Shown piece after piece: positions 14,060 to 21,669 of a stretch of DNA of 32,000 nucleotides. The translations under genes were made by a program, and so were the position numbers. The stretch's first letter is position 1. Each line of letters begins with the position of its first letter. The notes beneath the pieces were generated by a model. It was given only the letters and a program-made list of their open reading frames with translations. It was not told where the DNA came from and did not search any database. Source of the DNA: Pyrodictium occultum (GTDB lineage Archaea; Thermoproteota; Thermoprotei_A; Sulfolobales; Pyrodictiaceae); the NCBI RefSeq assembly GCF_001462395.1, contig NZ_LNTB01000001.1, positions 810,001 through 842,000 on the forward strand. The letters run 5' to 3'.

Positions 14060-14995
14060 TCACCGCCTCTCCTCCAGCGCTGCTCCCTCGGCTATCTCGT
14101 CCAGGGCGAAGCTGTAGACGTTGTATAGCCCCCTCGGGGGCAGCCCCGCCTTGACAGCCTTCTCGTCCTCCTCGTCGACCACCTTCCAGTAGCCGCCGCA
14201 GCGCCTGCACCGGTAGAGCCGGAGCCAGGGCTTGTCGGGGAGCGGGCGGTAGAGCACCACGTCTCCGGGCCTCTCGGCGCCGCAGTAGGGGCAGCGGGCC
14301 CTGGGGAACACCCACTCCATGCCGCAGGCCTGGCAGATCAGGTACTGGCGGCGGCCCTCACCCCTCATGTAGCCGACGCGGGTGGCGGAGCCGCAGACCG
14401 GGCAGACGCCCTGCTGCCAGTACTCCCTGGCCCAGTCGAGCGCGGGCCCGGCGGCCAGGCGGAGGGCGCTGAGGAGGGGCTGGAGGAGCCAGAGGGCGAG
14501 GGCGCGCACCCGGTCCCGGTCGGCTGAGACCGCGCCCGCCCAGGCGTGTATGCTGTCCTCCCTCCCCTGGAGCAGCTCCTCGACCAGCTGGGATAGGCTG
14601 AGCACAGCCTTCTCCACGGGGTCCCGCAGCGAGGCGGCGGCGCCCTCCAGGCTGAACCCGGCCCCGGCCGCGGCGTCCATTATAGCCAGCATGGAGTCGC
14701 GGAGGAACGCCTCGCCCATCAGCGGGCGGGGGAGCCCGCCGAGCAGGGCTACGAGAGGCTTACGCTCCACGGCTATCCTCCGCGCCGCGGCCTGGACCTC
14801 CTCCACGAGGCCCGCTTCCCGGAGGCGGCGGAGCGCCTCCTCCTCTACCCGTGCCTGGGCCTCGTAGAGGGCCTCGAGGATGCGGTAGGTACGGCTATTC
14901 TCCGGCTCCTCCTGGGCCAGCCGGTCGAGCCACGCCCTTATCTCGGGAAGCCTATCCTTCAGGAGCCTAAGACCATGCCCCGACTCTACCATCAC
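14060..14995 (-). CDS. fdhE: Formate dehydrogenase accessory protein FdhE
   Basis: ORF track, 311 aa. It has the FdhE Cys pattern: CPVCGS...RRQYLICQACGMEW..RARCPYCG...YRCRRCGGYW (four CxxC pairs) after a helical N-terminal domain. It lies in the fdh cluster. Confidence 0.8.
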   Translation of the reverse strand: MMVESGHGLRLLKDRLPEIRAWLDRLAQEEPENSRTYRILEALYEAQARVEEEALRRLREAGLVEEVQAAARRIAVERKPLVALLGGLPRPLMGEAFLRDSMLAIMDAAAGAGFSLEGAAASLRDPVEKAVLSLSQLVEELLQGREDSIHAWAGAVSADRDRVRALALWLLQPLLSALRLAAGPALDWAREYWQQGVCPVCGSATRVGYMRGEGRRQYLICQACGMEWVFPRARCPYCGAERPGDVVLYRPLPDKPWLRLYRCRRCGGYWKVVDEEDEKAVKAGLPPRGLYNVYSFALDEIAEGAALEERR

Positions 14996-15122: not shown

Positions 15123-15941
15123 CTAGCAGAGGGGCGATAGGGGGCTAGCCTCTGCATAGGGCTCCAGCCCCAGGCGGCCTAGGGGCATAACGAGTGGCGC
15201 CCCCTGGATCCTCTCCGGGGCCGTGTAGACTGCCAGGCCCCGGCCATCCGGCCTGCGGAGCACGAGCGTGACGCCATGCTTCCTCGCGGCCGCGAGCCCG
15301 CTGAGCAGGGGGTGGTGGTTGGCCACGATGACCCGGACCCCCGCCCTCGCGAGAGCCTTGACCGCGTCCCCCGACACCCTGCCGGTCGAGACGGCCACCA
15401 GGGCTAGCCCCCTGAGCCTCCCGGCCGCGGCGAGCCTGGACAGCATCCCCGCCGCCTTCAACATGGCGCTGTGCCTGCTGACATCGCTTACGAGCAGCAG
15501 CCTCTCCGCGGAGCCCGAGCCGCGCTCCACCCCGTAGACGGCGACCGAGTGGAGCGCGTAGGGGCACCGGTGCTTCGGCACCATATGCACCAGGTCGCGG
15601 TAGGCCTCCTCCACCAGGCTCCACTCGACCCTGCGGTCCTCGGGTAGCCCGGCGGCGGCCGCCCTAGCGAGCCGGGCCCTCACGAGGAAGCTCATATCCC
15701 CGGTGCCCGTGACGGATAGGAGCTCTACGTGGTCCCCCAGCTCCGCCAGCTCCTCGCGCAGCGCCAGCCCCGCCACGGCGTCGGCGAGGTAGTTTGGGCT
15801 AGTGTATATCGAGCCTAGCCTCCTCCCGTCCAGCTCAACCACGTACTCGTAGTCGGCTGCCACGCGCAGCCCCGAGACCATGGTGGTGGCCAGGCTGCAC
15901 TCACGGGCAGCGTCCACGGCCCTGGCTACACGCTCCTCCAT
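15123..15941 (-). CDS. fdhD: FdhD-like formate dehydrogenase sulfurtransferase/accessory protein (divergent)
   Basis: ORF track, 272 aa, ATG with GGAGGG about 10 nt upstream. The C-terminal VAVSTGRVSGDAVKALARAGVRVIVANHHPLLSGLAAARKHGVTLV matches the FdhD pattern SGR.S.E...KA..AG........P...A...A...G.TL. Size and position fit FdhD. Confidence 0.65.
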   Translation of the reverse strand: MEERVARAVDAARECSLATTMVSGLRVAADYEYVVELDGRRLGSIYTSPNYLADAVAGLALREELAELGDHVELLSVTGTGDMSFLVRARLARAAAAGLPEDRRVEWSLVEEAYRDLVHMVPKHRCPYALHSVAVYGVERGSGSAERLLLVSDVSRHSAMLKAAGMLSRLAAAGRLRGLALVAVSTGRVSGDAVKALARAGVRVIVANHHPLLSGLAAARKHGVTLVLRRPDGRGLAVYTAPERIQGAPLVMPLGRLGLEPYAEASPLSPLC

Positions 15942-16023: not shown

Positions 16024-16794
16024 CTAGGCCTCCTCGGCCTCTTTGGCGGCCTTCTCGTAGTATAGCGGGTGGTGGTGCTTCACGAAGTCCTCGGGAGCGG
16101 TGCCGGTGCGGAAGATAGCCCTCACCATGGGCCTGTGCTCCGGTATCCCTATGGCGAGGTACACGTGCACTATGAGCCCTGCTATGCCGAGCCATGCTGC
16201 CCACACGTGTATTGTGTGCGCCAGCGCCACTGTCTCCGGGCTGAAGCTGCTGCGGAACCACATTACCATGCCCGTGGCGAAGAGTATTGCGAAGCCTATG
16301 AACACGCTCAATATCCACAGCTTCTGGCCTAGATTATACTTGCCGAACCTGACGCTCCTCCTCCCGAGGTAGTAGGCTGCCAGGTTCCTCACTGCCTCGC
16401 CCAGCCCGCCCTCAGGCCAGATCTGCCACTTCCTTATCCTCGGCAGCTCGCCGAGAAGCCATACCAAGCCTATAGCCGCCATGCCTACTCCTGCCAGCCT
16501 GTGGATTACCCTGGCCACCTGCACCCCTAGGCTGTAGGCGCTGTAGCCCTGCTCAAACGGGGAGTAGCCGAGCGCCTTAGCCAGGTAGGAGGCCGGTGTG
16601 CCGAGCGCGTAGGCTAGCCAGCCGAAGAAGCTGTCCAGCGGGCTCGGCAGCTTGGCGGCCGATATTATTAGCCCCGTGAGTATCAGCGCCGCCGCGAAGT
16701 GTACCACATGCTTATGCGTCCATATCTCCAGCTCGCTGAAGAGCCTAATCTCGCGCGCCACCTGGAGCCACCTCCCAGGGCGTGGGTGGGTCAT
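16024..16794 (-). CDS. fdnI: Formate dehydrogenase gamma subunit-like membrane cytochrome b (FdnI / Ni-Fe hydrogenase b-type cytochrome family)
   Basis: ORF track, 256 aa. RLFSELEIWTHKHVVHFAAALILTGL, FGKYNLGQKLWILSVFIGFAILFATG and HTIHVWAAWLGIAGLIVHVYLAI give multi-TM helices with conserved His positions. It starts 21 nt after the beta gene. Confidence 0.75.
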   Translation of the reverse strand: MTHPRPGRWLQVAREIRLFSELEIWTHKHVVHFAAALILTGLIISAAKLPSPLDSFFGWLAYALGTPASYLAKALGYSPFEQGYSAYSLGVQVARVIHRLAGVGMAAIGLVWLLGELPRIRKWQIWPEGGLGEAVRNLAAYYLGRRSVRFGKYNLGQKLWILSVFIGFAILFATGMVMWFRSSFSPETVALAHTIHVWAAWLGIAGLIVHVYLAIGIPEHRPMVRAIFRTGTAPEDFVKHHHPLYYEKAAKEAEEA

Positions 16795-16815: not shown

Positions 16816-17619
16816 CTACCCGCCCTTGGAGCCGCTGCGCTTCTCCATCCTCTTGGCCCGCCAGTAGACGGCGTGCGCCACCGCGCCTAGCGCGGCCAGC
16901 GCCGCCAGCCCGACGCCGACCTCGCGGCCTAGCTGCACGCCTGGCAGGCGGCCTCTCGGGTCGGCGGGGAGCCCCAATACCTCGTACCACTTCTTGCCCT
17001 GCTTGGCGCCGAGGCTCCTATACTTCCTGGTCACGTAGAGGTAGTGGGTGTGCCCCACGTAGTCGTTCACGTGGTCGCCGTAGACCTCGTAGCCTGCTGC
17101 ACGGTACTTCTCCACAAGCTCCCTCCACGGCCCGAACTCGAGCGCGTCGGTAGGGCAGGCCTCGACGCAGGCGGGCTGGAGCCCGTTCTGTATACGGTCT
17201 ATGCAGAGCGTGCACTTGTACACCTTGTTCGTCTTAGGGTCGTAGCGCGGCACATTGTAGGGGCAGGCCTCGATGCAGTAGCGGCAGCCGATGCACCTGT
17301 CGGAGCGTATCACCACGGCGCCCTCGGGGTGGACCTCGATGGCGTTGACCGGGCACGCCTTGGCGCAGGGCGCCTCGCTGCAGTGGAGGCACTGGTGCTT
17401 CTTGAACAGCCAGAAGGGCTCCCCGTCCTCGACGCCCTCCAGGAACTGCATTATCATCCAGGTGTTCGGGGTGAGGTCCGGCGGGTTGGTGTAGCCCTGG
17501 GGGTTGAAGCTGGTCTCCTCGGCTTTGAGCCCGTTCCACACCTTGCATGCTACCTGGCATGCCCTGCAGCCTATGCAGGTGTCCAGGTTGACTACTATCC
17601 CATACTCCGTCACGGGCAT
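16816..17619 (-). CDS. fdnH: Formate dehydrogenase beta subunit, 4x[4Fe-4S] ferredoxin-type with C-terminal TM anchor (FdnH-like)
   Basis: The track ORF is over-extended to 17832. The real start is ATG 17619 (MPVTEYGIVVNLDTCIGCRACQVACK), preceded by GGAGGTGAG. Cys clusters: CIGCRACQVAC, CLHCSEAPCAKACP, CIGCRYCIEACP and CTLCIDR...CVEACP. The C-terminal helix is VGVGLAALAALGAVAHAVYW. Confidence 0.9.
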   Translation of the reverse strand: MPVTEYGIVVNLDTCIGCRACQVACKVWNGLKAEETSFNPQGYTNPPDLTPNTWMIMQFLEGVEDGEPFWLFKKHQCLHCSEAPCAKACPVNAIEVHPEGAVVIRSDRCIGCRYCIEACPYNVPRYDPKTNKVYKCTLCIDRIQNGLQPACVEACPTDALEFGPWRELVEKYRAAGYEVYGDHVNDYVGHTHYLYVTRKYRSLGAKQGKKWYEVLGLPADPRGRLPGVQLGREVGVGLAALAALGAVAHAVYWRAKRMEKRSGSKGG

Positions 17620-17651
17620 CTCACCTCCCGGTCCGTTGGGCGGAAGAAGGG

Positions 17652-20600
17652 TTAGAGTATGGGCTGCACGCTGGGCTTCGACTGGTAGGTGTATTTCTCG
17701 GGGCTCGCCTTCCTCACCCATGCCAGGAACGCCTTGGTCTCCTGCATGGTTGTCACTATGTCGAGCAGCAGTATCGATATAGTGTTGGCTACGTCGAAGC
17801 TGTTGTGGGCGCCGCTCCAGCCCCAGTGCCACGGCACGTTTACCACGTAGACCTCCCTGCCCGCTATCCTCAGCTTCGGCATACGGTTGGTCACCAGGGC
17901 TCTCACGTATATCCTGTTGCGGTTGTTGCCCAGCTCGACAATATCGCCGCTCTTTATCCCGAGCTTCTCAGCCAGCTCGACCGGTATCTCCGCGAAGGGC
18001 TCCGGCACCATCTCGGCGAGATAGGGGACGTTCCTGGTCATTATGCCGGTGTGCCAGTGCTCCTCCAGCCTATTCTCGGTAACCACTACCACCTCGGACC
18101 CGCTGGGAGCGTACTTCTTCAGCTCCTCGTAGCTAGCCGTAATCGCCTTGTAGAGCTCTGGCATCTGCTCCGGCGGCTCTATGTAGAAGAGGTTCTCTAT
18201 CCTCCTCCACGCCAGCGCCGGGTACTCCGTCGCCAGCTCCAGGCTCGGGCTCTCGCCGGGCTCGAAGTGGAACGGGTAGTCGATGCTGTACGCCCAGACC
18301 TTGCCGTCGGGCCCTAGGGTGGCGTACCACTCGCCGTACCGGGATATTAGCTCCTTCACGCACTTCTTGTAGTTGTCGGGGCTGCCGTCGACGCAGGACT
18401 TGAACTCGTTGATGAACTTGTCGTGCACCCGGCGCCACTCCTTCCAGTCCTTGTATACTATGGTCTTGCCGTTGACGGTCTTGGATCCCTTGAAGTAGGG
18501 CTTGTAGAAGTTCGCCTTGCCGTAGTCGAGCACCAGCTCGGGGTCGTAGTAGAAGCTCTCGCACATCGGGCACTTGATTCCAAGCTCCTCCACGGTCTTT
18601 ACCTCGTAGCCGCCGCCGGGCTTCCAGAACACTATCCTGCCCACGGTCTTGCCGTAGCGTATCATAGCCTCCGGGTCGGCTGCGCCGGTGAATATGTCGG
18701 CCGTGGTCTTCTGGCTGCAGCGCTCGTTGAGGCATGTCCAGGCCCGCTTGTAGAACTTTCCTATCAGGAAGTTGTGGCCGGGTATGAACGCTGGTCTCAT
18801 CTCACCAGTCTTGGCGTCTACTATGTCGCCGGCCTCGCCCAGTATCTCGACCGTCTTGCCGTCCAGCTCGGGGCCTACAGCCCACCTGCCCGCCTCGAAG
18901 GTGAACCTGTCTTTGCGGCCGAAGGTCTTCTCTAGCGTGTAGAGGTTGTAGAGTATCCTCACGTTTCTGGGCCAGCTCCATCCCCAGTCCTTGTAGAGCC
19001 TCAGCGGCGCCTTGGCTCCAGGGTGTGTGAGGGTGCCGCTGTCCAGCAGCCCGTCGGGCTGGCCGGGCGACCGCGGTGCCGAGACCCTCCTCGCGGCCAG
19101 CACCCTATTGTGGGCCCAGTCGTACTGGCCATAGTAGAGGTCGACGGCCGCGTCTATCTCCTTGTAGACGAGTACTGGGTCTACCTCCTGGTAGTCGCTC
19201 CACGGGTACCTGTCACTGCTGTAGTTCATGTAGGGGGCTATCCTCCGCCTGTACAGCTCCACAAGAGTATCGGCCTCGGGATGCTTCACCAGCACGCGCT
19301 CCACGTGCTTGCCGTACTCCTCGCTGGGCAGCTTCGCCAGCCCAGCCCTCCTCATGTGCTCCCAGAGCTTGTACATTATCCACAGGTCCGGCTTGGCGTC
19401 GCCGGGCGGCGAGACCACGCGGTGCTGCCACTGTATCCAGCGGTTGCTGTTGGTTATGCTGCCCTCCTTCTCGTACTGGAAGGCTGCGGGGAGGAAGACG
19501 TCGGCGAACCAGGCTGTCTCCGTGAGGAAGATGTCCGAGACGACTAGGAACTTGAGCGCGGAGAGCGCTGCCATAGTCATCTTGGAGTCTGCGTCGCTTA
19601 TCGCTATGTTCTCGCCGAACAGCCACATAGCCTCAATCTTGCCGCCCAGCTTCCTAGTCCTCGGGTCATCGGGCAATAGTACGCCCATCCACCAGTTGTT
19701 CTCGGTGTAGCCCTTGTTGAAGGGCAGGTCGCTGATAACCACGCTGTCCTCGTCCCAGGGCCTGTCCTCGGGGTCGGTGCCGACGAAGATCCCCATGGAC
19801 AGCTCGTAGCGGCGCCAGTTCATGAACCACCATGACCAGAGCAGCGCCGTGCTGTTGACCGTGAGCCTGCAGTTGTCGCCCTTCTCGTCGCAGCCGCTGC
19901 ACTTCAGCCCCAGGGCCTTGCAGGTCTTCATGCTGGGGCGCCAGTTGAAGGCGTCGGGGAAGCCCTTGAGCTTCCACTCCTGGTAGGCGCGCACCTGCTT
20001 ACTGTTGGTTGGTATCTTCACGTAGCCTGGGAATATGTGGCTCAGTATGCAGAGGTCGGTGGTGCCCTGCACGTTGCTGTGGCCGCGGTAGGGGTTGAGG
20101 CCGCCGCCGGGGAAGCCCAGGTTGCCGAGGACCAGCTGGACCAGCGCGGCCATTCGGGTGTTCTGGGTCCCCACGTGGTGCTGGGTGAGCCCCATAGCCC
20201 ACTCTATGGAGGCGAACCTCTTGAAGTTTGTTGTTACACCGCTGTTCTCGACAAAGAGCTTCGCTATCTGTCTAAGCTTCTCGACCGGTATACCGGTTAT
20301 CCTCGAGACCTCCTCGGCGGTGAACCTCTTTGCTATATCCTTTATCTCCGAGATCTCCTCCAGGTCTATGTTGAACCTCTTGGCGTACTCCCTGAACGTG
20401 GGGAGCTGGTCTACGGGCGGGTTGCGCTCGTAGAACGCGTAGTGGAGAAGGTAGTACATCACGGGTATGTCGGTCCCGGGCCTGTGGAAGGCGAACACCT
20501 GGGCCTTGGAGGCTGTGCGGCCGTACTTCGGGTCGACGACTACCAGGGTGAGGGTGCCGCGCTTAATACCCTTCATCACGTGCCTCATGGAGACCGGGTG

Positions 20601-21332
20601 GGCCTCGGCGGGGTTGCCGCCTAGGATGAGGTAGACACTGATGTACTGGGTGTCGGGGAAGCTCTGAGTCTGGGCCCCGAAGCCCACGGTGCCCGCTAGG
20701 CCGGCCACGGTGGTGGAGTGGCAGCGGCGCGCATCATGGTCTATATTGTTGCTGCCGAGGAGCATTGAGATCTTCCTTATCAGGTATGCCTCCTCGTTCA
20801 GCATCTTAGCCCCGGCCATTATCATGAGCGGGTACTGGTTGCCCAGTCGGAAGTAGCAGCCCTTCCTGCTGCCGCACAGCTTCCCGTCGTAGGGGTGGTA
20901 AGAGCGCACCGCGCCAGCATTCTCCCCGAGTATCTCCTTCATCCTCCTCGCTATGTAGGCGAACGCCTCCTCCCAGGTCACCGGCTTCCAGACGGGCTTG
21001 TACTTCTCCAGCACCCTCCGGAGCTCGTTGGAGTCCCTGGCGGCGAGTATCTCCTCGGGCCGGGGCTTGGGGTTTACACGTATCAGCGGCTTCCTCGCCC
21101 GCAGCCCGTTGTAGGCGCCGAAGAGCTGGATGGAGGCCTTGCCCTTGGCGCAGAGCTTGCCCTCGTTAAGCGGGTTATCGGGGTCGCCCTCGAGGTAGAC
21201 TACCTTGTCGCCCCTCTTGTAGAATATGATGCCGCAGCCCACGCTACAGTAGGTGCAGACACCCCGGACCTCAACGGTCTCCTCGAGGTTCTTGCCCCCT
21301 ATCTCGCCGAGACGGTAGCGCTTCGGGGCCAT
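17652..21332 (-). CDS. fdnG: Formate dehydrogenase-N-type catalytic alpha subunit (bis-MGD molybdo/tungstopterin oxidoreductase), Cys-type, with large insertions
   Basis: ORF track, 1226 aa. It is collinear with E. coli FdnG as I recall it. VCTYCSVGCG is the N-terminal [4Fe-4S] site. DARRCHSTTVAGL aligns with ARVUHGPTVASL, so Cys replaces Sec. Other matches: GGNPAEAHPV, VVDPKYGRTAS, GLTQHHVGTQNTRMAALVQLVLGNLGFPGGGLNPYRGHSNVQGTTD. Confidence 0.95.
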   Translation of the reverse strand: MAPKRYRLGEIGGKNLEETVEVRGVCTYCSVGCGIIFYKRGDKVVYLEGDPDNPLNEGKLCAKGKASIQLFGAYNGLRARKPLIRVNPKPRPEEILAARDSNELRRVLEKYKPVWKPVTWEEAFAYIARRMKEILGENAGAVRSYHPYDGKLCGSRKGCYFRLGNQYPLMIMAGAKMLNEEAYLIRKISMLLGSNNIDHDARRCHSTTVAGLAGTVGFGAQTQSFPDTQYISVYLILGGNPAEAHPVSMRHVMKGIKRGTLTLVVVDPKYGRTASKAQVFAFHRPGTDIPVMYYLLHYAFYERNPPVDQLPTFREYAKRFNIDLEEISEIKDIAKRFTAEEVSRITGIPVEKLRQIAKLFVENSGVTTNFKRFASIEWAMGLTQHHVGTQNTRMAALVQLVLGNLGFPGGGLNPYRGHSNVQGTTDLCILSHIFPGYVKIPTNSKQVRAYQEWKLKGFPDAFNWRPSMKTCKALGLKCSGCDEKGDNCRLTVNSTALLWSWWFMNWRRYELSMGIFVGTDPEDRPWDEDSVVISDLPFNKGYTENNWWMGVLLPDDPRTRKLGGKIEAMWLFGENIAISDADSKMTMAALSALKFLVVSDIFLTETAWFADVFLPAAFQYEKEGSITNSNRWIQWQHRVVSPPGDAKPDLWIMYKLWEHMRRAGLAKLPSEEYGKHVERVLVKHPEADTLVELYRRRIAPYMNYSSDRYPWSDYQEVDPVLVYKEIDAAVDLYYGQYDWAHNRVLAARRVSAPRSPGQPDGLLDSGTLTHPGAKAPLRLYKDWGWSWPRNVRILYNLYTLEKTFGRKDRFTFEAGRWAVGPELDGKTVEILGEAGDIVDAKTGEMRPAFIPGHNFLIGKFYKRAWTCLNERCSQKTTADIFTGAADPEAMIRYGKTVGRIVFWKPGGGYEVKTVEELGIKCPMCESFYYDPELVLDYGKANFYKPYFKGSKTVNGKTIVYKDWKEWRRVHDKFINEFKSCVDGSPDNYKKCVKELISRYGEWYATLGPDGKVWAYSIDYPFHFEPGESPSLELATEYPALAWRRIENLFYIEPPEQMPELYKAITASYEELKKYAPSGSEVVVVTENRLEEHWHTGIMTRNVPYLAEMVPEPFAEIPVELAEKLGIKSGDIVELGNNRNRIYVRALVTNRMPKLRIAGREVYVVNVPWHWGWSGAHNSFDVANTISILLLDIVTTMQETKAFLAWVRKASPEKYTYQSKPSVQPIL

Positions 21333-21447
21333 GTAGCCGAGGGCCCTCCTAACGCTACCCGGCAGCGCGGCGAGCGTGGCAACCGTCGCGGCGGTTTTTC
21401 AGGAAGTTCCGTCTGTCCAGGCGGAGAACATGGCCCGACTGTGCCAA
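21333..21447 (-). other. Remnant or frameshifted twin-arginine (Tat) leader of the formate dehydrogenase alpha subunit
   Basis: My translation of one frame, from TTG 21447: (M)AQSGHVLRLDRRNFLK. The fdnG frame immediately continues KTAATVATLAALPGSVRRALGY-MAPKRY. The two halves are offset by 1 nt at the A5 run (T5 on + at 21395-21399). The fdnG frame has TGA just 5' of the run (21401-21399). Confidence 0.6.
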
Positions 21448-21488
21448 GGCTGGCAGGGCACCCCACGCAGCCCCTTAACATCGCTGTT

Positions 21489-21507
21489 GTTTAAAATATA
21501 TTTTCGG
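21489..21507 (-). promoter_or_regulatory. TATA-box candidate for the fdh operon
   Basis: The + strand reads gtttaaaatatattttcgg, which is aaaatatattttaaa on the minus strand. It is centred about 50 nt upstream of TTG 21447. It lies in a 190-nt AT-rich spacer (21481-21669). Confidence 0.4.
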
Positions 21508-21669
21508 TATCAGTGCCGATTTTAGTGGATAACCGGTGTTTAAGGCAGCCATCGTATTAGCGTGATAATTTAACCTATAATTCGAATCACACATAGTATA
21601 CGTTATATACGTGAAATGGGCAGCCATCACGGTGTTTTTGGAGGATTCGCGCCGGCCGCCCCCCGAGGG

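Follow-up and report, generated by a model that had tools for sequence, protein, structure and literature searches.

A probable one-base insertion, private to its lineage, splits the Tat leader of a formate dehydrogenase N-like catalytic subunit in Pyrodictium occultum PL19

Introduction

In the formate dehydrogenase FdnGH of Escherichia coli, the alpha subunit alone carries a Tat signal, and the beta subunit is co-exported with it, its tail anchor being inserted by Tat. The alpha subunit of the complete complex, FDH-N (FdnGHI, PDB 1KQF), has an RRxF(L/F)K leader, an FS0 motif of the form CxxCxxxC, a (Sec/Cys)-His pair and a catalytic Arg. It is accompanied by a beta subunit with four Fe-S clusters and a C-terminal tail anchor, by a cytochrome b gamma subunit with four transmembrane (TM) helices, and by genes for FdhD and FdhE. 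The hyperthermophilic crenarchaeon P. occultum PL19 likewise encodes each of these elements, with the difference that a frameshift interrupts the leader of its alpha subunit.

PL19 is an obligate H2/S0 chemoautotroph, and its genome was assembled with SPAdes from 22.5 M Illumina MiSeq read pairs (PMC4767911). We have analysed a window of 32,000 nucleotides of this genome (contig NZ_LNTB01000001.1, positions 810,001 to 842,000), in which a first-pass annotation had reported a Tat leader displaced by one nucleotide within a run of five adenines (A5). The report proved correct to the base, and all of its coordinates were verified. Here we describe the split leader, compare it with the intact leaders of close and distant relatives, and weigh the explanations for it.

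Results

The minus-strand operon reads MobA, fdhA, fdhB, fdhC, fdhD, fdhE, with MobA upstream of the catalytic subunit gene fdhA (Table 1), and the products of fdhA and of the adjacent genes agree fully with the P. occultum PL19 proteins CF15_04425 to CF15_04450. Pfam domains Molybdop_Fe4S4, Molybdopterin and Molydop_binding were found in the alpha subunit, and C242, H243 and R454 are invariant in the orthologue alignment, as expected of an FDH-N alpha subunit. The active site RRCHSTT aligns with ARVUHGPTVA of FdnG (ARRCHSTTVA against ARVXHGPTVA in 1KQF). Compared with FdnG, the PL19 subunit has Cys for Sec and exceeds the E. coli protein in length by about 210-250 aa. Its Cys-rich insertions, CKALGLKCSGCDEKGDNC, CLNERC and CPMCES (19869-19922, 18717-18734 and 18555-18572), are absent from solved FDH structures.

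The first-pass assignment of the partner subunits to the FDH-N type also holds. The beta subunit has only one TM helix, at its C-terminus, with the Lys/Arg-rich tail RAKRMEKRSGSKGG behind it, the gamma subunit is a 4-TM cytochrome b, and the genes for FdhD and an FdhE-like protein come next. The FDH-N models of NCBIfam (TIGR01553, TIGR01582 and TIGR01583) were the best hits though below their equivalog cut-offs, with scores of 445.5 against 814.2 for alpha, 215.4 against 334.7 for beta and 54.9 against 115.85 for gamma. Because of these scores we call the enzyme FDH-N-like, presumably of the outward-facing type and with formate as its presumptive substrate. Formate-oxidising activity should be assumed with caution, since extracts of P. 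delaneyi showed no FDH activity although the genes are annotated (PMC8105010).

Two points of annotation in the window may be added. The beta subunit starts at ATG 17619, preceded by GGGAGGTGAG, in agreement with the gene calls of sister strains and with KSW12033.1; a mechanically called beta reading frame of 338 aa (16816-17832) would reach about 180 nt into the 3' end of fdhA. The gene density of about 1 per 1.2 kb, with locus tags advancing in steps of 5, corresponds to roughly half the gene figure given in PMC4767911, a figure that probably reflects miscounting, not gene fragmentation.

Direct reading of positions 21200-21620 showed that two leader frames meet at the A5 run. Frame A, opened by TTG 21447-21445, encodes MAQSGHVLRLDRRNFLK; its codons are TTG, GCA CAG TCG GGC CAT GTT CTC CGC CTG GAC AGA CGG AAC TTC CTG AAA AAC..., and up to its stop it is translated as (M)AQSGHVLRLDRRNFLK-NRRDGCHARRAAG. 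Within it, LDRRNFLK (21420-21397) agrees with the Tat n-region consensus S/T-R-R-x-F-L-K. Frame B, which is +1 relative to frame A, follows its TGA with AAA ACC GCC..., giving KTAATVATLAALPGSVRRALGY, then reaches the annotated start ATG 21332 (MAPKRY...) and remains open down to 17652. A Tat signal has its h- and c-region in the same frame as the motif and joined to the passenger; as encoded in PL19, the motif lies in frame A, and the h- and c-region and the passenger lie in frame B.

When one A is deleted, the leader passes the cut-offs of Pfam TAT_signal (PF10518; 23.5 bits against 22.7) and of TIGR01409 (21.3 against 16.7), and both matches cross the junction, at residues 10-31. The 30-aa frame-A peptide as encoded gave no family match in a search that included both models. 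The repaired leader matches 1KQF from RR through CTYCSVGCG, in keeping with the alignment to the E. coli FdnG precursor proposed in the first-pass annotation. Since the repaired leader passes the Tat models and aligns with FdnG, and since A4 exists in two close strains, the split leader is more than chance.

These two strains emerged from a search with the repaired protein, which found two proteins of 1264 aa (P0001 and P0121), in Logan assemblies of SRR5453782 and DRR667394 only; no paper on either run turned up in the literature. The corresponding contigs are 99.20% identical to the window over 7.4 kb (L001, SRR5453782) and 99.43% identical over 18.4 kb (L002, DRR667394). Both read CTG-AAAACC (A4), and hence ...RRSFLKTAATVATLAALPGSVRRALGYRAPKRY... 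in one frame; their h- and c-region DNA is identical to that of PL19 and stands in frame with the n-region. The sister strains thus encode exactly the predicted 1264-aa Tat precursor, with the fusion ...RRNFLKTAATV... that A4 had been expected to restore. Their alpha subunit is >99% identical to that of PL19, and the operon order is common to both. Over the 18.4 kb shared with L002, A5 is the single frame-breaking indel: with 21399 excepted, indels in or beside genes are of 3, 3 and 6 nt only, and the other 1-nt indels are all intergenic, which argues that the assembly is not generally frameshift-prone.

The frameshift is the 3'-most difference of a hyperdivergent patch. Relative to L001, the 241 nt of this patch show 26 substitutions and four indels, three of 1 nt and one of 8 nt (~11%), against ~0.3% over the remaining ~7.15 kb. 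The 8-nt indel sits between the TATA box and the start codon, and the TATA-like box is nearly conserved in the sister strains, with one substitution (21491) despite the surrounding divergence. In the n-region, four changes are synonymous and two non-synonymous, and D-R-R is kept, the two arginines being written AGA CGG in PL19 and AGG CGA in the sisters. By its pattern of differences, the patch looks like an imported or fast-diverged functional allele and not noise, perhaps a short segment imported by recombination or a regulatory region that evolves fast. Divergence continues weakly to about 21767. A second difference between A5 in PL19 and A4 in the sisters lies at 21639, in intergenic DNA 30 nt downstream of the MobA stop.

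Within the 1226-codon reading frame, 6 synonymous and 2 non-synonymous changes set PL19 apart from both sisters. At residue 192, where 9/9 relatives have D, PL19 carries the derived change D192G, which possibly hints at relaxed constraint on fdhA. Compared with L002, beta has 0 nucleotide differences and 3 of the 9 in alpha are non-synonymous, substitutions too few to show relaxed selection. In the gamma gene, 8 nucleotides differ from L002 and 6 of these differences are non-synonymous, as are 5 of 6 in the FdhE-like gene; relaxed or diversifying selection may act on these two genes across the strain group.

The annotated start is itself specific to PL19. ATG 21332 results from an AGG>ATG change at codon 39, 22 codons downstream of the frameshift and 22 nt past the stop of the upstream open reading frame (uORF). 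None of 34 aligned orthologues has Met at position 39, where the nearest of them have K, T and A. ATG 21332 is the sole usable restart codon that keeps the FS0 cysteines, and its context is comparable to that of the other operon genes, which have GGAGG(TG) 4-10 nt upstream of their starts.

The comparison was extended to 38 orthologous loci in species-representative genomes; P. occultum and Hyperthermus were not among the genomes returned. The twin arginines are in frame with the enzyme at 36 of the 38 loci, a split leader occurs at none (0/38), and the remaining two (L036 and L037) have no leader. R12 and R13 are invariant in the 34 aligned orthologues. The A run at the Tat-motif Lys codon varies from 1 to 5 nt in the orthologues and is always in frame. 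Intact orthologues (P0001 and P0121, and others from Pyrodictiaceae, Ignicoccus and Pyrobaculum) share the operon order of PL19, and differ from it in having A4 or another in-frame codon at the junction and Arg, Lys, Thr or Ala, not Met, at position 39. One protein that had appeared to lack RR, P0007, was mis-started, and a GTG start gives LTRRQFLK in frame. The suspicion that RRNFLK might be fortuitous, for which a comparison of orthologues had been suggested, is dispelled by the invariant RR and the absence of split loci. Judged from these alignments, the split is derived and private to PL19, because the sisters carry A4 and all 36 other leader-bearing loci are in frame; for the same reason, a conserved recoding site is excluded as a description.

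The two loci without a leader belong to natively leaderless alpha paralogues (L036 and L037; P0037 and P0045). Their N-termini, MRFFKGRWRLGELGGK and ...YKSTWELGEIGGK, start a few residues before the conserved LGEIGG, and the PL19 product from ATG 21332, MAPKRYRLGEIGGK, likewise begins shortly before LGEIGG; at the equivalent start position, L036/L037 read MRFFKGRWRLGELGG and PL19 reads MAPKRYRLGEIGG. The beta subunits of the leaderless paralogues have a different, basic/amphipathic and non-anchor-like C-terminus, whereas PL19 keeps export-type partners. A cytochrome b gene beside the leaderless paralogues was not found in the 2.5 kb downstream flank. L037 is a second copy in the same MAG as the Tat-bearing L031. 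The leaderless paralogues probably form a cytoplasmic branch of the family.

Table 1 Features of the fdh locus of P. occultum PL19 in window coordinates, with leaderless paralogues in the coordinates of their own loci
Feature	Position	Strand	Remark
Hyperdivergent patch: promoter, 5' UTR and n-region of fdhA	21399..21639	-	L001/L002 alignment
Archaeal TATA-like box AAAATATATTTTAAA upstream of fdhA	21490..21504	-	putative promoter function
Shine-Dalgarno-like GGGGTG, 11 nt upstream of native TTG start	21459..21464	-	sequence
Tat n-region with twin-arginine motif, (M)AQSGHVLRLDRRNFLK, frame A	21397..21447	-	homologous to codons 1-17 of intact P0001/P0121
30-codon upstream ORF as encoded: n-region and out-of-frame tail NRRDGCHARRAAG	21355..21447	-	ends at TAG 21357-21355
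A5 run, frameshift site	21395..21399	-	A4 in sister strains L001, L002
Tat h- and c-region KTAATVATLAALPGSVRRALGY, frame B	21333..21398	-	closed 5' by TGA 21401-21399
Shine-Dalgarno-like AGGAGGG, 12 nt upstream of ATG 21332, between uORF stop and ATG	21344..21350	-	sequence
Annotated start ATG, strain-specific	21330..21332	-	AGG (Arg39) in L001/L002
fdhA body, 1226 aa, CF15_04445	17652..21332	-	FS0, active-site and catalytic Arg motifs
fdhA FS0 motif CTYCSVGC	21257-21234	-	sequence
fdhA active-site Cys-His RRCHSTT, Cys instead of Sec	20729-20709	-	sequence
fdhA catalytic Arg in YRGHSNVQG	20090-20064	-	sequence
fdhB, 4x[4Fe-4S] beta subunit, 267 aa, C-terminal TM helix and positively charged tail	16816..17619	-	identical in L002
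fdhC, cytochrome b gamma subunit, 245 aa, 4 TM	16024..16761	-	domain/TM analysis
fdhD, sulfurtransferase accessory gene	15123..15941	-	family matches
FdhE-like accessory gene	14060..14992	-	family matches
Natively leaderless alpha paralogues, other Thermoproteota	L036 310-4493; L037 2426-6666		

Discussion

The most likely explanation, to which we give a probability of about 0.72, is that the fdhA leader has acquired an ordinary one-base insertion (A4 to A5), which is confined to the PL19 lineage and has left the alpha subunit leaderless or absent, with loss of export. This is not a new kind of system. The insertion may be the product of slippage within an A run of a kind that is very scarce in a GC-rich genome with a preference for AAG: A/T runs of at least 5 nt are missing from the coding sequence of 15 other genes in the window (21,255 nt). 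PL19, the sister strains and several relatives alike encode the Tat-motif Lys by AAA, a rare codon, and this makes for one of the genome's few sites prone to slippage.

The insertion would sever the twin-arginine n-region from the hydrophobic region and the enzyme. Ribosomes that initiate at the native TTG would make a 30-aa peptide and stop at the TAG, and the alpha subunit would then be made solely from ATG 21332, the start codon created by the second PL19-specific change. Its product would begin near the mature N-terminus, without a Tat signal. Most likely, the alpha subunit is either made without a leader, from what we take to be a functional start at ATG 21332, or not made. Because an FdnG-type alpha subunit has the sole signal for the alpha-beta pair, the FDH-N-like outward-facing complex would no longer be exported or assembled in PL19, and its function would be lost or at best relocated. 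Loss of the enzyme is plausible in this strain, since an obligate H2/S0 autotroph could tolerate it. As export-type partners have been kept, the state of PL19 is best read as a recent lesion and not as an evolved cytoplasmic enzyme.

A homopolymer error, the first explanation offered by the first-pass annotation, ranks below a real indel and appears rather unlikely. If the extra A were an artefact of sequencing or assembly, the PL19 chromosome would truly have A4 and an ordinary Tat-FdhA, and the ATG would encode Met39 as a neutral polymorphism. Both sister strains do have A4, and the downstream 1226-codon reading frame is intact and looks constrained, which would equally be expected of a functional gene whose assembly contained an error. 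The sole contig that reproduces A5 is, moreover, simulated. The A4-repaired PL19 protein is absent from a collection of 15 billion proteins, which shows only that this collection holds no reassembly of PL19 from real reads. Very deep Illumina MiSeq data rarely miscall a 5-base homopolymer, which counts against an artefact. The 18.4 kb compared with L002 hold no other frame-breaking indel, and the extra A lies at the edge of an unquestionably real divergence patch with other indels. It also coincides with a start-creating substitution, for which the chance is 0.6-2.7%, given 8-14 strain-specific substitutions in the gene; this argument is post hoc, and position 39 is naturally variable among orthologues. 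Given an assembly from deep Illumina MiSeq data (PMC4767911), the absence of other frame-breaking indels from the 18 kb around it and the linked substitution that creates a start, we rank a real indel as most likely and infer that the extra A is present in the DNA and not in the assembly alone. In total, it is likely a genuine strain-specific mutation.

One apparent confirmation had to be discarded. The Logan contig L049 (ERR2185279_903388) is 100.000% identical to window positions 22473-20849, including A5 and the ATG, and it is not independent, since the run ERR2185279 simulates a marine metagenome from 365 reference genomes of prokaryotes. Simulated data sets among assemblies of public reads such as Logan can echo references and so mimic independent confirmation. 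An exact-pattern scan of JGI metagenome contigs for the A4 or A5 allele gave 0 matches, MGnify 2020 and one further search for confirmation added nothing, and a gamma protein of the type in the window was not found outside NCBI sources.

Somewhat less probable still than an artefact is that PL19 has taken the first step of a topology switch, in which the frameshift and a compensating AGG-to-ATG change have produced a functional cytoplasmic FDH or CO2-reductase alpha subunit with partners that are not yet adapted. If so, a start would have been re-created at the mature N-terminus, matching the natively leaderless paralogues of other Thermoproteota. The retained export-type partners are accommodated by this possibility only as a transitional state; they favour the preferred reading of a recent lesion.

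The first-pass annotation had also considered a real inactivating or phase-variable indel, of which the real, strain-specific indel is the part that stands. In a phase-variable or heterogeneous locus, A4 and A5 cells would switch FDH export reversibly, and the assembly would show the majority state. The tract length does differ between close strains (A4 against A5), and the second A4/A5 difference, in intergenic DNA at 21639, is 240 nt upstream. Known contingency tracts are typically 7 nt or more, and a tract of 4-5 nt is no long homopolymer. The A5 run moreover goes together with the ATG substitution, which is fixed, and with the divergence of the promoter patch; this association points to a stable allele, and phase variation is thus very unlikely.

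Least probable of all is recoding, by which +1 slippage (CUG AAA|A ACC) or a polymerase dropping one A would restore the full Tat precursor in a fraction of the product, spanning the junction as ...NFLKTAATVATL... (FLK-TAATV). Programmed +1 frameshifting is exemplified by bacterial prfB and by archaeal and bacterial cases of the Mg-chelatase type, and PL19 resembles these in the one-base forward shift and in a P-site tRNA able to re-pair: on AAAA, tRNA-Lys can pair perfectly again after moving one base downstream. AAA itself is seldom used (8 AAA against 244 AAG in the 15 genes counted), and the n-region keeps a promoter and a Shine-Dalgarno-like motif upstream. Unlike programmed +1 sites, the PL19 junction lacks conservation, a slow or stop A-site codon, and an upstream Shine-Dalgarno-like stimulator or RNA structure. 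Neither the two sisters nor any of the 36 other loci with a leader show the split, and the A run is unconserved in orthologues and never out of frame. The site has neither an in-frame stop nor a rare A-site codon, AAC being common (17.8 per thousand). Around and downstream of the slip site, RNA folding does not reach significance (z = -0.75 and +1.02), and Rfam and tRNA scans of the window gave no match. Five A's are well below the lengths known for appreciable transcriptional slippage. A low background frame leak is conceivable; a programmed mechanism, and with it the +1 recoding suggested at first pass, is not supported.

In summary, CF15_04445 is annotated, unflagged, as a complete protein of 1226 aa, and it is actually an FDH-N-like alpha subunit that is missing its export signal. 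An outward-facing formate dehydrogenase can therefore not be credited to PL19 from the genome alone, while it can be credited to the sister strains. The value of the finding lies in the correction of an annotation, in a natural export mutant and, as a modest possibility, in a topology switch caught under way. Provided that the insertion is real, PL19 would form with its A4 relatives a natural, isogenic-like pair for the study of Tat hitch-hiker export in a hyperthermophilic crenarchaeon.
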